Shown here: positions 13,297 to 35,200 of the stretch, one piece after another
How positions within the stretch are numbered: the first letter of the stretch is position 1
Layout of the letters: the number at the start of each line of letters is the position of its first letter
Assembly: GCF_038025025.1 (NCBI RefSeq)
Contig: NW_027117339.1
Span: 1,302,001-1,366,000 of the forward strand
From: Phyllosticta citribraziliensis
Lineage: Eukaryota
Length of the DNA stretch: 64,000 nucleotides
Reading direction: 5' to 3'
The notes under the pieces: generated by a model
Seen by the model: only the letters and a program-made list of their open reading frames with translations
What the model was told of the DNA's origin: nothing
Databases searched by the model: none
Made by a program: the position numbers and the translations under genes

Positions 13297-14597
13297 GTGG
13301 GTCGGGTGAGTGTTGAGCTTGAGGTCAGGTGAGCGGAGTGAGGGGCGAGAGGGTAAGAATTGGGATCTCTTTTCCACGTTCTTTCTCTTCTTGTCCTGAT
13401 GTTTTACTACCAATCTTACCTTCTTCCCTTTTTTGTTCCCGTATATCTTGCTGTTCTTTCTCTTTTACTTCGTCTCTCATCCATCTTTCCCTCTCTTTCT
13501 CACTCTCCGCATCTCTGAGACCGCATACAAGATAGACAGACAGGTCAGGTCATTGGGTGGATGGACGCATGAACAAATGTATGGGTGGGTGTGCGGGCGG
13601 TTGGACACATGAGATTGACTCGTACAATCAGTTGGACGGATGGATGGACAGATACCCGCACACGTACACGCTTTTTGTGGCCTTTGGTATGCTCTTCGTT
13701 GGATTCTTTCCTGCCGTAATGTTGTCGATACATGTATAGTTTTGTGTGCACGTTTATTGGGCTGGAACTATGAATATGATCTAGACGCAGGAATACAAGG
13801 ACAGTACACGCTAAGGGAAACGAGAAAGCAAGGGGTTAAGACGGACGGGCCAAATCAGATCAGATCGCGTTTGGTGTATCGAAACTCTTGAAGTTTCGTG
13901 AGTGTCGGATGAACCCGTTGGATGATGAGCTGCTGAGAAGTGTGTGCGCTACATACATACCTATGCCTTTTCGGTGAAATGGACGTGCCGCGCTACCGTA
14001 CTTTTCACTCTCAACTCTTGTCTCTCCTTCAAGTCCACGAAAGGATTCGAGATGCCGGCAGGAGCCAACCGATGATAGGGAGAGATGAGCACGGAGATAA
14101 GTGGGTGAGTTGAGCTGCTAGGTAGGTACTTGTAGGTGGTAAGCAAGAAGCTCACGAAGGGTAGTTCCGAGGCTTGATTGCGAAGTCGTGGCATGCACAA
14201 CGAGAGCAAGGAATGACCGCCCACCAGGGAGTATTCATTTGCTCTGACAGAGGACTGATAGGGAGCCTGCTTGGATAGATGGCCAACAGGGAGCGTTCGA
14301 GCGACCGTGAGAGTAGTAATTGGGAATTTGCATGTGCCACTGCTTTTACTATCAAGACTATCAAGCCTCTTTCGCAGATTGCTGATTTCTTTCCAATTTC
14401 GTCTGCAATCAAGGCTCACTCATTCATCATTATTGCTCAGCTCGAAGACACCTTTACTTCATGCAACCCACAGCGTCAACATAACGCTCCAGCTTCCCTT
14501 GAACACCTAGACCACCTCCCCCTAAACAACCACCATCAATTTACAACCTCCCCCTCGGTTTCCCTTCGCCGCCATCATCTCCATTTCCTCCACCAAG

Positions 14598-15930
14598 TCA
14601 CCTCCTGGAGTCGACGGCATTGCGCAGGTTGCGAATGACCTCAGCGGGGTCGTTGGCGCCAAATACGGCGCTGCCGGCCACAATGACGTTGGCGCCCGCG
14701 TCGGCAGCCTTGTCAATCGTCTTCTCCGACAGTCCGCCGTCGACCTCGACGTGCAGGTCTGGGTACCGCTCGCGCACGGCCGTCACCTTGGGCAGCTGGT
14801 CTGCCATGAAGGATTGCCCGCCAAAGCCTGGCTCGACCGTCATGACGAGGACCATCTGGGAAGGGGGCGTTAGTGATTTATGGGTCTGGACACAAGGATC
14901 GGGAGGTCGTCGATTGGGAGCGCTGGCTGGATAGGTGGAGTAGGTGACGCCGAGGAGTTGAGCGGACGAACGAGCGCATGTGGCGCTTAGAGGTATAGGT
15001 GGGTAGGCGGAAAAAGACATCGCGCCCTGATGCAGGAACAATCTCTGATCCCATACGACCACTTCCTCGTCTAAGCGCCGCGCCGCATACATCGCCTCCT
15101 CGCCGCATCGCGTACCTGACGCCCACCTACCCCTTGCACTATTGCGCCTCGCCGCGCGCCCCAGGGCATACAGAGGAGACGGGGAACCAAGCCACTCACA
15201 TCCGGCACCTCATCCTTGTTCGGGTTCTCAAGAATGTCCCACAGTACATCGACGGGCGTCTTGGGCTTGATGGCAATGCCGGCCAGCAGGCCCTCGTCGT
15301 GGATGAACTTGATGAGCTCCTTGGGGCTGGTTTTGGCGTCTGTCACGCCGGATGGGCTATCGGCGGCCGTCGAGTTGATGGCGGCTTCGTAGTGGAAGCA
15401 GTACAGGTTGCAGCCGGCCGATTTGAATTCGCGGACCCATCTCTTGGGCTGTTTGGCGTCGTCGCCTGTCTGTCAGCTACCTGGACTGCTCCAATTCCTT
15501 TTGTTTTCCATGAGACGTGCACTCGCTTTGGGAATGGTGTGTGTGGCACGGGTAACGCGGTTTAGCGCCCGTATAGCTGGGACTTGGTGGAGTACCACGG
15601 GCAATGCCACCATGCAGGTGCGAATGGCACGCTTGGTTGCTTGCTCGCTTCGAGTCGTGCGCCAGAATCGGAGCATCATGTCCGTACCTCAGCAATCATC
15701 ATGTGGCAGTCAAATGTGCCACGACCGTGGGCCTCCTTGGGCGGTTCGACGTGCCGCCTGATCTTGGTGACGACGGGGGCGCCAAAGGTAATGTTTGGCA
15801 CAAAGTGGCCGTCCATAATGTCGACGTGCAGCCAGTCGGCGCCCTGGGCAATGGTGTCGGAGCATGCCTGGCCTAGGGCGGCGAAGTCGGCGGAGAGGAT
15901 GCTGGGAGCTATTATCGCGGGCGGCGCCAT
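14598..15930 (-). CDS. RPE1: Ribulose-phosphate 3-epimerase
   Basis: Exons 15930-15688, 15448-15200, 14855-14598; introns of 239 and 344 nt. Motifs: [75 protein letters not shown]. Confidence 0.96.
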
Positions 15931-17236
15931 GGTGGAGGTTCTGGTTCGAGGATTCAGTGGCTGGCAGTGGAGGAGAGAGGTTTGCGAAAAGTGATGATGG
16001 CGGAGAAGACGGGAGACGGTAGAGGCTTGCGGAGTGACGTCGGAGGGGCAGTTTTGGCTTTGGTGGGGCAGCCGCTGGTCGGCCTTTTCGGGCTTCGACG
16101 GCACAGTCCACGCCATACCATGCCATGCTTCCTCACCTTTCGATAGAGCACTCGATGGTCTCGAACCATCGGCGGCTACTGCCAACCAGGTTTGTCAAAC
16201 GTCCACATGGCCAGCTTCCTTGCTAACTCGCATAGAAGTTCTGGCATCGACAGAGCAGCTGCTGGCCGAGCCAAGTCCGTAGCCGCAGCGCGAATCATTC
16301 GCGATTACAAAACAACTGCGCTTGGGGCGTCAAGACCAGACTGATGACCACGTCCAGTCCCTCGGTCGCCGGCACCATGTCCAAATTGACAGGTTGAGAA
16401 AGAGCTGAGCTTGAGACTGGCCGTCGTCAGGCGACATGGCCTGCTCTGAACAGGGCGACGCCGAACAGTCATGGACCTCGCACCGCCGACAGCATGGCCA
16501 TGCATGACAATATATCGACAGGCTCGAAGCAGACGCGGCGACGGCACTTTGAGAACTGCGGCCGAGCTGGCCGCGCTGTCTGGCAGAGATTGGCTGGCGA
16601 CTGTCGTGTGTTGCCGCCCAAATAATCACCACCCCCGGATGCAGGTCGACGCTCGGGCCGCAGGCGCTTGCAGCTTTCGTCTGTGTGGGCCAATCGCGAC
16701 CTTCAACACCATGTGCTTGCATACACGCCCACTCGTCACCGTCGTACTCTCCGACGCCTGCTCTATCCTCGTTGGCTCTGCTCACCATTTCTCTGCCGGC
16801 CCGTGGGCTTCCCTGTCAACCGCCATGCTGTGCCCTGGTCAGGGCCACACAGGCAGCCAGAAGAGGCTCCCGCCTTGCCGCTGATCTTTGCCATGTTTCC
16901 TCTTTGTTCCTACAGAAGCGCTGGCCTCGAGTGGTCGGAGCAGACTTTTTCATGCATCCTGTAAGCCACCCGGGGCCGCAGCAGAGGTGCCTGCTCTCAT
17001 AACTTCCGCCAGCCCTCGACTTTGTGCAAACTTCATTCCTTCTACTCTTTTTGGATTTTGCCCATTCCCTCTCTTGTTTCATTGTGGTTTCCGTTGACCG
17101 GACCTCGTCGTTCTTTGGCGCCTAGTATTCCCATCATCCGTTGAACGGCCTACATCTACGCCTCTTAATAATACCCAATTTCATACGCCCTCAATAAGAC
17201 TCACATCCCTATTTGGAGCGTCAATCTTGTCCGACA

Positions 17237-23926: not shown

Positions 23927-25572
23927 AGCCTCGAGGTCATCACTTCGGACGAATGTCTCTGCTGTTGTTCTTTTCCTTGTCGAAAGAAGGAGGAGACGAA
24001 TTGCCGTTCTTGTTGCTCGCTTTGCGAACAAACAAGAAGTCAGGTACATGGGAACTGGACACGGGCGCCGAATGATACGACGTATGAAGGAATGAGATTG
24101 AGTTTTGGTTTCCGGGATTCGATCGAACCACACACAGTCCAGTTGCGAAAGAGGTTGACAAGAATGAAAGTCGAGCCTGAGTCGGCACAACGTAGAGTTC
24201 TTCTTGGTATATAAGTGACTGGAGTTGGAAAGATGAATCGAGGTATCGCCGTTAAAAGCGTAGTAGGAAAGAAAGTAGACGGTAGGAAAAGGAATCCCAC
24301 CAGCCTACCTGTGACCGTGCTGCTCGTGTGAGGTTGTCAGCGCACGGTTCCCTGACTTCTCTTGCTGCTCCTCTCCAAGGCGTGGAAGCGCCAGTAAAAA
24401 CATCAGTCGCCCTATCATCCTGCAGTCATAGCCTCATGGTAGCGCAAGGCTGCTAAACCTATTTCTCGTGTTCGATAAAACATCATGTGTAGTGTTTGAA
24501 GGCTTTCTAAACGGATTCGAGGCGCGCAGTCGACCGACATACCTGTTGCTGTCATGCAACAATGGATGGCCACCTTGAAGACGGATGCTCGTTAGTAAAT
24601 TACCTTGAGGATAGCGAATTAACAAACGAAGAAGAGTTCAATGGTATCAGAAATACCACTACACTGGTGTGCAAACACTGCCCGGCCTTGAGATGGGCTA
24701 TGATACCGGATTGAAATATCATGCAAAGGGAATGAGCAGTTGAAAGATCGTGAGAGGAGCAGCATACCTTGTCTGCGACTGGTCTTGAAGCAATGCTGGC
24801 CATGCACGACGAGACATCGACATTACGATGGCTTAGCACTGGTCGTTAGCACTGAGACAGAAAGAAGCGCACATTCCATCGCCAAGCTTCAAGACTTTCA
24901 GAATTACTGATACACGACGGAATCTCTGTCGCTTGACGGTAACATTGGGCGGCTCATATATTCCGGAGATGAGTTGGCATCAAGTCAAGGTGCGGCGTGC
25001 TTTGCGTGAAGTAGGAGGCGCGAAGAGAACGAACCTCTGAGATGGGATAAGTCTGCTGGCCTGGAAAGGCCGACATCCATCATGGAGACGATGTCGGAGG
25101 TGGGCTCAACCTACCCAAAGCTTCGGGGGACAGCATCCTACCTATATATGAAGACCAGTGCGGAGCCACGGAGACTCTGTACTCATGCCCGCGACTGGGG
25201 AGGCCCTTGACGTTCACAACCTTCTCGTGGATACATGTGTTTCAACTTGCCTGGATTGTGGTTGACCGAGGCGCGAGCAACCAACCTCTGGGCCTGGGCT
25301 TGTCCTTGAAACCAGTAGACAATGTGCATCTGTCCACGAGCGAAGTGTCAGAGTGTCGTCGCAGCGGTGGCGCCGAGAAAAGACCTTCCACTTCCTTACT
25401 CAGGTCCACCCCCTGCGCTCGTCACGTTGTGATAAGACCCACTGCGATCGGATGGTGCTCTGCCTTATCTGCACGTGACTCCGCCCACCCCGGCCGGAGC
25501 ACTCGTCGCGCATCATCGCAGGCCCAGACGCACCACCACATTACCAAGATCACCTCCTGGAACACCGCGAAG

Positions 25573-32243: not shown

Positions 32244-35200
32244 TCATCGGCTGCCAACTTGGCTCTGCTGGCTGCCTTGAGCCTGCATGCCGGGTGCTCG
32301 TGGACTCCCCTGGTGGCCGTGAGGGTTTTGTGGCGTTGCACTCCTACTCTCGGGTCTCACGCTCCCAACACCCGGGCTAACTTGACCACCCTGACCCGAG
32401 TGTTGCTGCTGATGTTGCTGTCGTTGCAACATTTGCTGCCGCTGCAACTGTTGGAAAGCTTGGTGTTGAGCATTGCCGGGGCTCACACTGCCGCCAGCGG
32501 TTGCAAGGCCTGCGTGCTGCTGAAAGGGGCTCGGCGTCAAGTGCCCTGAGGCACTTGCTGCTGTGCCAGCTCCAGTAGCACCGGCTGCAGCGTTCAAGGC
32601 ATTCTGGCGCGCTGAGGCCATCTTTTGACTGATGCGGTCCGAAGCCATACGTGACGCTGCCTCGTGTGACAAGTTAGGATTTGAGACTCGAATCTCGTGC
32701 GTCAAGTTGGTAATTTGCGGAATGTGTCCGCTGGAGAGTGCCTGTGGAAGGGGACTCTGAACCGCGGCCGTCATTCGCGGGGATTCAGAAGAGCCTTGAA
32801 TGCCATTCATCCTGGGAGTGGTTGAATCTGTCCCGTTCATCTTGGGGGCTCCAATGGAGGCCGCAAGCATGGAAGCTGATGGCATATTGCCATTCATGGG
32901 CATGCCGGCCAAGTTGTTTCCTTGTGCCATCTGTTGCTGCTGCTGCTGCTGCTGTTGTTGTTGTTGCAGTTGAAGCCTCTGCTGATGTGTCAGGTTATTG
33001 AAGTTTTGTCTTTGCAGGGCCATGCGCATATCCTGAGTCTGCTGAGGCTGAAGACGTTGTCCCTGCATGTTCATTTGCATTTGTGCTTGCGGCATGCCCT
33101 GCACGCCCATTTGCATGCCAGGAACGCCGTTGGCCATTCCCTGCATCTGGGCTGGATGTGGGCGGCCTTGCATACCCATACTTGGATGTAGCTGCCCATT
33201 TTGCGCCCCTTGACCCGTATTGGGCTGACCGTGAGCGTTGCTGGGAGTTCCATTGCGCTGCTGCGCGGGTCCGCCAGGCTGACCAGGCATCTGACCGGGC
33301 CGCGCCATGGCTTGCTAAGATGGGATCAGCTTGGGCAGGATGGGGACTCTGGAGTGGTAGGCTCACTCTTTGCGCCATGAGCATCTGTCGCCGCATCTCC
33401 TCTTGACGCTCCTGCAGCTTCTGCTCACGGTCATACTTGAGTTTGGAAAACTCTTGGGGCGTGTAAACACTGGTCTTGACCGGAGCGGCTTCGTGAGCCT
33501 TGCGCATGGCAGCAGCTTTTGCGGCTGTGTCATGATTAGCGAAAATCCGCCAATGCAACGTGATCCCAACCTACCCTCCTGCTGCTTGTGGGCCGCAGTC
33601 TCACGCTTGCGGGCTTGCTTCCTCATTGCATCAATCAACGCCAAGTATCTCGTGTTTTTGCGTCTCTCAACGCGAATGGGCTGGGCTGTGCGGCGGCGCG
33701 GAGGATTCATTGGTTGGCCATTTTGCTGTGCTTGTTGTTGTTGGGCCGCTTGGTACTGTGCTGTCACGGTACGAGCAGCAGCCTCCAATCTCGCGTGGTA
33801 GGTCCGGAAGTAAGGAGTCTTGCCCATTTCGCCTGGGAGCCCTTCGAGCTGCATCCAGCGTTCGAAACATTCCCAAGGCGAGCGACGCTCGGCCCCTGCG
33901 GTGAACGTGGATGACTGAGCCAAAGCTGTCGCCACGAGCGACCAGTTGAATTGGTACTCCTTGACAAGCGCTCGAAGCCGCTGGTCCTCGTCCCACAACC
34001 ACAACGATGGATTTCTCGACTCGAAAAAGGCTGTAGACGGCATGGGAAATTCCGAGGGAGGTCTGAAAGCGTGTCCAGCATGTAATCGGTCCCGCACGTG
34101 TCGATTTTCTGGGAGAAACAATGCAACGTCTGATTTTTCGGGGGATAATCCAATCTTTGAGAAACGGAGGCTGGGAGTGGAAGCGTTCGATCGTTCAGAA
34201 GTTGTGCGCCTGTGAGTGCCCGGCGCCTCTTCATCCTCTTCAAATTCGTAGCGGCCTCGTTTGCGCGGAGGCTCCGTAGACTGAGGCACAAATTTAGAAG
34301 TGACAACCTTTGAGACCGGGATAATTTCTGTCTCTGGACGTGTTGGATGGCCAACAACTGAGGGAGACTCGAGGCCTTCGAGTTTGGATTCGTACAATGG
34401 AAGCTCCGAAAAGAGCTTCTCGGTGGCCGGAGTTTTGTCAACATTCGCAACCACGTCATCGTATCCCATAGAAAAGACCGCGGCCGGCGGCAATGACCCA
34501 TGAAGATTGAACGGGATCTCGTCGTCTTCCAGAAAAGACTCGCTTTCGGTCTCGGTCAATCCTGATGCAACAAGTTCAGGAGGGGAGGGAATGTCCTCCT
34601 CCATCTGGCCCGGGGCTGGGCGTTCGCGGCGCGGGCGCGTGACCTTTACCTGCAACGAAGCACGCTTCTCTGGGGAAGCAGTGACCCAGTCTGCGCACCA
34701 CCTGGCCATGTTGCGGGCTGTTGCCATCTTCCATTTCCTTTCTTCGCGAAAGTCCGTTCGCATCCATTTCATCTGGGCAAGGAGACTATCATGGAAAGAG
34801 GCAGGTCTAGGAGGCTCGGGAGACTTTTCCATTTGCCGCAGCGACCAGCGGTTGGCATGCTGTAGAGTGTAGATCCGCTTAAGAATCTTGTAGTCCTGCT
34901 GTTCCCGAATGCTAGCATACTTGTTGGATGTCGTGTAAGTTTTCGTCGCTCGCTCGAGAAGCTCGCGGCAAGAGTTAAATGGTTGTGAATGGGCCTGAAA
35001 ATCGAACATTCCAATCAAGTAGTCTTTGTCGGGGTCCTGCGATGCTCCTTGGAGCTCGGCCCAAGCCTTGTTTGTTGCCAAGCCGTCCCTCATTACTGGA
35101 GTTTTATCATGCTTCGCAAAAATGACACCAGTAGTCCTGCTCTTGACCTTTGTCCGAGGCTCAGAATTCCGCGTTCTCGCAGTAGCCGCGGACGGCGGAC

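Follow-up and report, generated by a model that had tools for sequence, protein, structure and literature searches.

A candidate readthrough extension with a PTS1-like end behind the UGA CU stop codon of RPE1 in Phyllosticta citribraziliensis

Does the gene for ribulose-phosphate 3-epimerase (RPE1) of Phyllosticta citribraziliensis carry, behind its stop codon, the information for a second isoform that is addressed to peroxisomes? The question is raised by a minus-strand locus in a stretch of 64,000 nucleotides (nt) of contig NW_027117339.1 (positions 1,302,001 to 1,366,000, assembly GCF_038025025.1). This whole stretch is called the window, and all positions below refer to it. The stop codon of the gene is a TGA followed by CT, and the open frame behind it ends in Gly-Arg-Leu (GRL), a tripeptide that resembles a type 1 signal for targeting to peroxisomes (PTS1). 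A preliminary description had proposed a peroxisomal RPE1 isoform made by readthrough of this stop. Our analysis supports the proposal in part. What speaks for it is a comparative pattern: among 80 RPE loci compared, the TGA CT stop is found only in orthologs that stop at ...RR, and the ends hidden behind it are listed PTS1 tripeptides. Judging from this sequence comparison, we consider it probable that the tail acts as a weak PTS1, which would send a minor share of the enzyme into peroxisomes.

The gene consists of three exons that are separated by two GT..AG introns, all on the minus strand. Exon 1 (15688..15930) begins with the ATG at 15930-15928 and is followed by intron 1 (15449..15687, 239 nt), exon 2 (15200..15448), intron 2 (14856..15199, 344 nt) and the coding part of exon 3 (14601..14855). 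The exons match the family PF00834 (198 positions) collinearly and over its full length: exon 1 covers positions 2-67 (E-value 1.5e-21), exon 2 positions 69-127 (3.1e-07) and exon 3 positions 130-198 (4.3e-23). Up to the annotated stop the protein has 249 amino acids (aa) and ends in ...NAVDSRR. It shares 95% identity with a cluster represented by a protein named for Phyllosticta citricarpa, whereas the value for Macrophomina phaseolina is 86%. This indicates a Dothideomycete of the order Botryosphaeriales.

The 3' end of the coding sequence reads ...GAC TCC AGG AGG TGA CTT GGT... on the minus strand, with the TGA at 14600-14598. The stop and the CTT behind it (14595..14600) form the UGA CU readthrough context; its hexamer is the same as that which Stiebler et al. 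2014 (PLoS Genet 10:e1004685) give for the rpe1 gene (um04797) of Ustilago maydis in their Table S1. The preliminary description had called TGA CTT a variant context. This was wrong, since it is the context of the validated gene itself. CTT and 17 more sense codons (14544..14597) are followed by a second stop, the TAA at 14543-14541, which closes the extension. Re-reading the sequence reproduced exactly what had been described for positions 14541-14600. The translation is LGGGNGDDGGEGKPRGRL, a Gly/Asp-rich linker followed by K-P-R-G-R-L. Basic residues at positions -4 and -6 and a flexible linker suit the general description of a PTS1. The last three codons, GGG AGG TTG (14544..14552), encode the candidate signal GRL.

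Transcript evidence was taken from the assembled contigs of four public runs, which were aligned to positions 14200-16000. In one run (X1) the sequence agrees fully with that of the window; another (X5) comes from a sister organism. Contigs of both runs have joints at 14855/15200 (344 nt skipped) and at 15448/15688 (239 nt skipped). This confirms both RPE1 introns and shows that these contigs are derived from RNA. One X1 contig (record 1) covers positions 14367-14652 without a gap and with 0 differences from the window. Hence the stop and the tail lie entirely within the mRNA, and the 3' untranslated region (UTR), of which the part beyond the second stop lies at 14367..14540, reaches at least to 14367. 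The X5 contig is spliced and 1014 nt long; it covers 14383-14855 without a splice or indel. A further contig of X1 (record 6, 402 nt, identical to the window over 14828-15229) is unspliced over the borders of intron 2. Its depth is 357 versus about 5452 for the spliced form in the same run, and it is either retained-intron pre-mRNA or carried-over DNA.

The comparison of RPE1 3' ends in relatives, which the preliminary description had suggested as a check, yielded the evidence that carries our reading. The DNA comparison comprised 80 RPE loci from metagenome contigs, 14 of which are fungal-like (L001-L014, exon 3 identity 70-84%). Among these 14, three loci (L005, L008 and L010) stop at ...EKRR, and all three have a TGA CT stop. 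The 3' end of L005 reads TGA CTG CCA CGG CTG TGA, that of L008 and L010 TGA CTT GCA A(A/G)G GCA CTG CTG TGA. The tails are 4 to 6 residues long and end in PRL (L005) or ALL (L008 and L010). The nearest named proteins of these loci are from Dothideomycetes sp. NU457, Aureobasidium pullulans and Elasticomyces elasticus. The other 11 fungal-like loci end in GKL (6 loci), QKL, EKL, ANL, KEF and MSK, and TGA CT occurs in none of them (0/11). Across all 80 loci, TGA CT is found only in the three ...RR-type loci and in 0 of the 77 others. The sister organism likewise keeps TGA CTT together with the reading frame and the end RGRL-TAA. Stop context and PTS1-like end are therefore conserved in 3/3 other ...RR-type orthologs and in the sister organism, in a small sample of three lineages.

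The ends of these tails were compared with the list in Appendix Table A1 of Reumann et al. (2012), which gives 48 tripeptides that have been validated as plant PTS1s by experiment and has GRL, PRL and ALL among them. Where the stop is not TGA CT, a listed tripeptide closes the extension in only 1 of 65 readable cases. For the two lineages whose ends are independent of the choice of the list, a Fisher test of 2/2 versus 1/65 gives about 1.4e-3. In addition, L008 and L010 can be compared with each other. In exon 3 they differ at 16/255 positions and just downstream of the tail at 11/46; the tail itself, counted together with its two stops, has a single difference in 24 positions, which exchanges K and R. 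Hence the tail evolves like coding sequence.

The contigs and the related loci together bear on a different route to the same kind of isoform, namely alternative splicing. The sequence allows an in-frame GT..AG interval of 48 nt, AG/GTGACT...CCGAG/G at about 14599-14552. Its removal as a mini-intron would join ...AGG AG to G GGG AGG TTG TAA and give a product ending in R-R-G-R-L, which would mimic the orthologs that end in ...RRGKL. Such a route has precedents: according to the review of Schueren and Thoms (2016), alternative splicing attaches a cryptic PTS1 to PGK of Aspergillus nidulans and to GAPDH of U. maydis. No joint of this kind occurs in the contigs of any of the four runs, while the joints of both real introns do; a rare isoform could escape notice in contigs. 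Both X1 record 1 and the X5 contig pass through the interval without a splice. On inspection the interval is also poor in splice signals: it lacks a pyrimidine tract and a branch site of the CTRAC type, which the real introns have as CTGAC and CTAAC, and its 3' end is a disfavoured GAG. Furthermore, the tails of L005, L008 and L010, with 4-6 codons, are too short for any intron, yet these loci have the TGA CT stop. For these reasons the mini-intron was rejected, and we regard it as most improbable.

The readthrough reading can also be viewed against the C-termini of RPE proteins in general. A homolog search returned 7999 scored candidates, 7994 of which were homologous at E <= 0.001, and the C-termini were studied in the best 120. 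Nearly all named matches among these are called RPE. A direct C-terminal x-[KR]-[LIV] is present in 50 of the 120: GKL in 37, GKI in 3, GRL and EKL in 2 each, and RKL, QKL, RRL, GKV, TKI and NRL in one homolog each. In about 29 of the 120 the protein is closed by ...RR, exactly at the place where RPE1 of the window stops. The two GRL proteins are from Fonsecaea pedrosoi (P0035 with 259 aa and P0036 with 228 aa) and end in ...RRGGAGRL; in them a Gly-rich linker and GRL lie within the open reading frame (ORF) itself. When the tail was included in the query, with W in place of the TGA, the alignments covered 79-89% of the query and none of the homologs reached into the linker. Within the best 120, the RPE C-termini of Pezizomycotina form a mosaic. 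Proteins ending in ...GKL are mainly named for Pleosporales, Sordariomycetes and some Eurotiomycetes. Those stopping at ...RR end three residues before the ...GKL proteins and are mainly named for Capnodiales-like fungi, Aureobasidium, lichen-forming fungi and Phyllosticta.

The sister organism allows a closer look at the tail. Seven differences are listed between X5 and the window in this part. Three are synonymous changes in the third position of codons 3, 4 and 7; the other four replace Gly by Cys in codon 9, Glu by Gln in codon 11, Lys by Asn in codon 13 and Pro by Thr in codon 14. All seven fall in the Gly/Asp-rich middle of the tail. TGA CTT and the codon after it are free of listed differences, and so are the four final codons (R-G-R-L) and the TAA.

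Other contigs in the runs are more distant. A low-depth contig of 154 nt in X1 (record 2) has a related sequence over 14594-14709, with 12 differences in 116 nt. It departs from the window at 14594, which is 6 nt past the TGA, and its RPE frame is open through the 30 letters shown. It may be from another relative with a different tail. The runs X4 and X6, which have other organism labels, contain several diverged contigs. One of them (X4 record 9) can be aligned as far as 14543, where the TAA begins; this is a hint at most.

How strong is the case for a peroxisomal tail? The simplest alternative is an ordinary 3'UTR, in which the UGA terminates efficiently, the tail has no function, and the combination of GRL and CT is a coincidence in a G-rich UTR. 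Several results weigh against our reading, and some of them favour this alternative. Each feature of the site is unremarkable when it is taken singly, and the site alone is weak evidence. In the window, 54.2% of 3435 stop-to-stop intervals are at least 18 codons long, and the TGA CT context is seen at 79 of 3441 stop triplets (2.3%). A listed PTS1 tripeptide stands before 1.7% of 3073 stops of the window and before 2.0% of the 2301 counted in the fungal loci, and in shuffled versions of the local G-rich 3'UTR it forms the end in 1.07% (15936 usable of 20000 shuffles). A listed end lies behind 3 of 78 TGA CT sites in the window, that is, behind the RPE1 stop and 2 of the 77 others. If about ten thousand genes per genome are assumed, a few such coincidences are expected genome-wide.

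The sister organism adds to this side of the balance. The linker is not conserved; it differs at 7 of 60 nt, a higher density than in the UTR beyond it, where 158 nt have 3 to 5 differences, and than in exon 3, which has 4 in 255. Conservation of the two ends is marginal: the chance that the 24 nt at the ends escape all 7 changes is (36/60)^7, or about 0.03, this partition was made post hoc, and 14 of the 16 differences in this piece of the X5 contig are listed, so that the other 2 could lie in the extension. The basis of the comparison is narrow as well. The list of 48 tripeptides was located by a search for GRL, which leaves PRL and ALL as the independent tests, and DNA was available for only three independent lineages, with L008 and L010 being close relatives.

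The signal itself also counts against the reading. GRL is outside the canonical pattern [SAC][KRH][LM] and is not a canonical fungal PTS1, and the validation of GRL and ALL as PTS1s is restricted to plants. A glycine at -3 weakens binding: when SKL was changed to GKL in a human PEX5 assay, the apparent Ka fell about 4.5-fold, and the predictor score dropped by 8.5. Finally, a search for a stimulatory RNA structure 3' of the stop found nothing notable; the minimum free energy is -21.7 kcal/mol versus -19.2 ± 2.4 for shuffled sequences (z = -1.06). The published readthrough motif needs no such structure, and none seems to take part here in addition to the short motif.

The two other TGA CT sites of the window with PTS1-like tails are at 24042 on the minus strand, ending in SRL, and at 33912 on the plus strand, ending in SSM. 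The frames upstream of them have 98 and 116 codons, respectively, and are of low complexity and not protein-like. For this reason the two sites were set aside; they probably arose by chance.

The RPE1 site stands above this chance level because its gene is the one validated in U. maydis and because of the comparative pattern. An ordinary 3'UTR leaves several facts unexplained. It does not account for a TGA CT stop in all three of the other ...RR-type loci and in none of the remaining 77, with all three tails ending in listed tripeptides. Nor does it account for the coding-like conservation of the tail between L008 and L010 next to an unconserved UTR, or for the presence of GKL or GRL inside the ORFs of orthologs. 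On balance we judge the ordinary 3'UTR to be unlikely, if still the foremost competitor of a readthrough tail with a peroxisomal function.

Readthrough might also be real and the tail selected for another role, such as stability, oligomerisation or a different destination. A precedent is the extension made by readthrough of yeast PDE2, which causes degradation (reviewed in Schueren and Thoms 2016). The weakness of the signals points in the same direction, as ALL and tripeptides with G at -3 are weak PTS1s at best, and the localisation proposed here was deduced by comparing sequences. On the other side, the tails of the three lineages share only their ends, basic residues followed by x-[KRL]-L, as a targeting signal predicts, and GRL, PRL, ALL and the GKL of the orthologs all have experimental precedents as PTS1s. 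We therefore think that a role outside peroxisomes is quite improbable.

A peroxisomal RPE1 tail would be in line with published work on the same gene. Stiebler et al. (2014) reported that UGA CU by itself is enough to bring about readthrough, both in U. maydis and in HeLa cells. Their U. maydis screen of ORFs that end in TGA CT yielded the D-ribulose-5-phosphate 3-epimerase um04797, which is entered in Table S1 with TGA CTT, the extension ...RRPAKL, a PTS1 score of 12.7 and the label 'Targeted'; the rpe1 tail directs green fluorescent protein (GFP) to peroxisomes. According to a genome comparison in the same paper, other fungi conserve the Rpe1 readthrough signal, and some species have a PTS1 in the normal ORF. 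The review of Schueren and Thoms (2016) repeats these Rpe1 findings. The preliminary description was thus right to cite a peroxisomal readthrough isoform of Rpe1 in U. maydis. It is also the case that Rpe1 readthrough, with its conservation in other fungi, was already in print, and the novelty is smaller than that description implied.

A literature search found no ascomycete RPE1 readthrough beyond Stiebler et al. (2014), the species in Fig. 2C of that paper being outside the comparison; the text of its supplement has rpe1 only as the U. maydis entry. Rpe1 is not mentioned in a paper on peroxisomal 6-phosphogluconate dehydrogenase (PMC7214817). With regard to the tripeptide, GKL in place of SKL retains binding in the human PEX5 assay (1.42 vs 6.44 for SKL). 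In MpaH' of Penicillium brevicompactum, the GFP fusion is peroxisomal in Aspergillus, and this location is lost without the C-terminal GKL (bioRxiv 10.1101/524025).

A readthrough tail of this kind could work as follows. The normal product would be the ribulose-phosphate 3-epimerase of 249 aa in the cytosol. With low frequency, a near-cognate tRNA would decode the UGA in its leaky UGA CU context, and translation through the UGA and the 18 codons behind it would give an isoform of 268 aa. Its flexible Gly/Asp-rich linker would present K-P-R-G-R-L, a weak and non-canonical PTS1, to Pex5. Binding of the tail by Pex5 would then bring a minor fraction of the enzyme into peroxisomes by import, where it might serve, for example, a peroxisomal branch of the pentose-phosphate pathway.

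The mosaic of C-termini suggests a wider proposal, which we put forward tentatively and hold to be possible but doubtful. RPE1 of Pezizomycotina may be kept at a small peroxisomal fraction by two interchangeable devices, either a direct weak PTS1 of the type G-[KR]-L or a PTS1 behind a leaky UGA CU stop, and lineages may switch between the two. A locus of the Phyllosticta type would then combine the leaky stop with the weak GRL, and GRL and ALL would be genuine fungal PTS1s that predictors and annotations miss.

If the readthrough tail is real, the published Rpe1 case would be extended from a basidiomycete smut to Dothideomycete ascomycetes. The same gene would use a direct weak PTS1 in some lineages and one hidden behind a stop in others, and GRL, possibly also ALL, would join the working PTS1 repertoire of fungi. 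Standard annotation ends at the UGA and so would miss a differently localised second isoform of a core pentose-phosphate enzyme. No new question is opened by this locus, because the mechanism and the gene are both in the literature.

The nearest known system is Rpe1 of U. maydis. It is the same enzyme with the same TGA CTT, a short in-frame extension and basic residues before a terminal x-[KR]-L. The species mosaic described by Stiebler et al. (2014), with the PTS1 in the ORF or behind the stop, matches the mosaic among the homologs studied here. The two cases differ in that the U. maydis protein has a canonical AKL end and GFP targeting was demonstrated, whereas the tail in the window has GRL and a Gly-rich linker, belongs to an ascomycete and is a candidate from sequence; the two tails are not alignable.

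Three other systems are more remote. The fungal glycolytic isoforms of Freitag et al. (2012, Nature 485:522) are alike in that a cryptic PTS1 is attached to a cytosolic enzyme of core metabolism, with a mode of attachment that varies as a mosaic between species; the enzymes, PGK, GAPDH and TPI, are different ones. Human LDHB and MDH1 share with RPE1 the UGA CU(A) context and a short extension that ends in a PTS1, and they have a dual cytosolic and peroxisomal location (Stiebler et al. 2014; Schueren et al. 2014); the likeness to the locus described here concerns the context and the tail. In these animal genes the stop is followed by CTA and not by CTT, and their enzymes have no relation to RPE. 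MpaH', finally, is an unrelated hydrolase with its signal in the normal ORF and no readthrough, yet its G-K-L, from which G-R-L differs by a single conservative exchange, works as a PTS1 when the host is a filamentous ascomycete.

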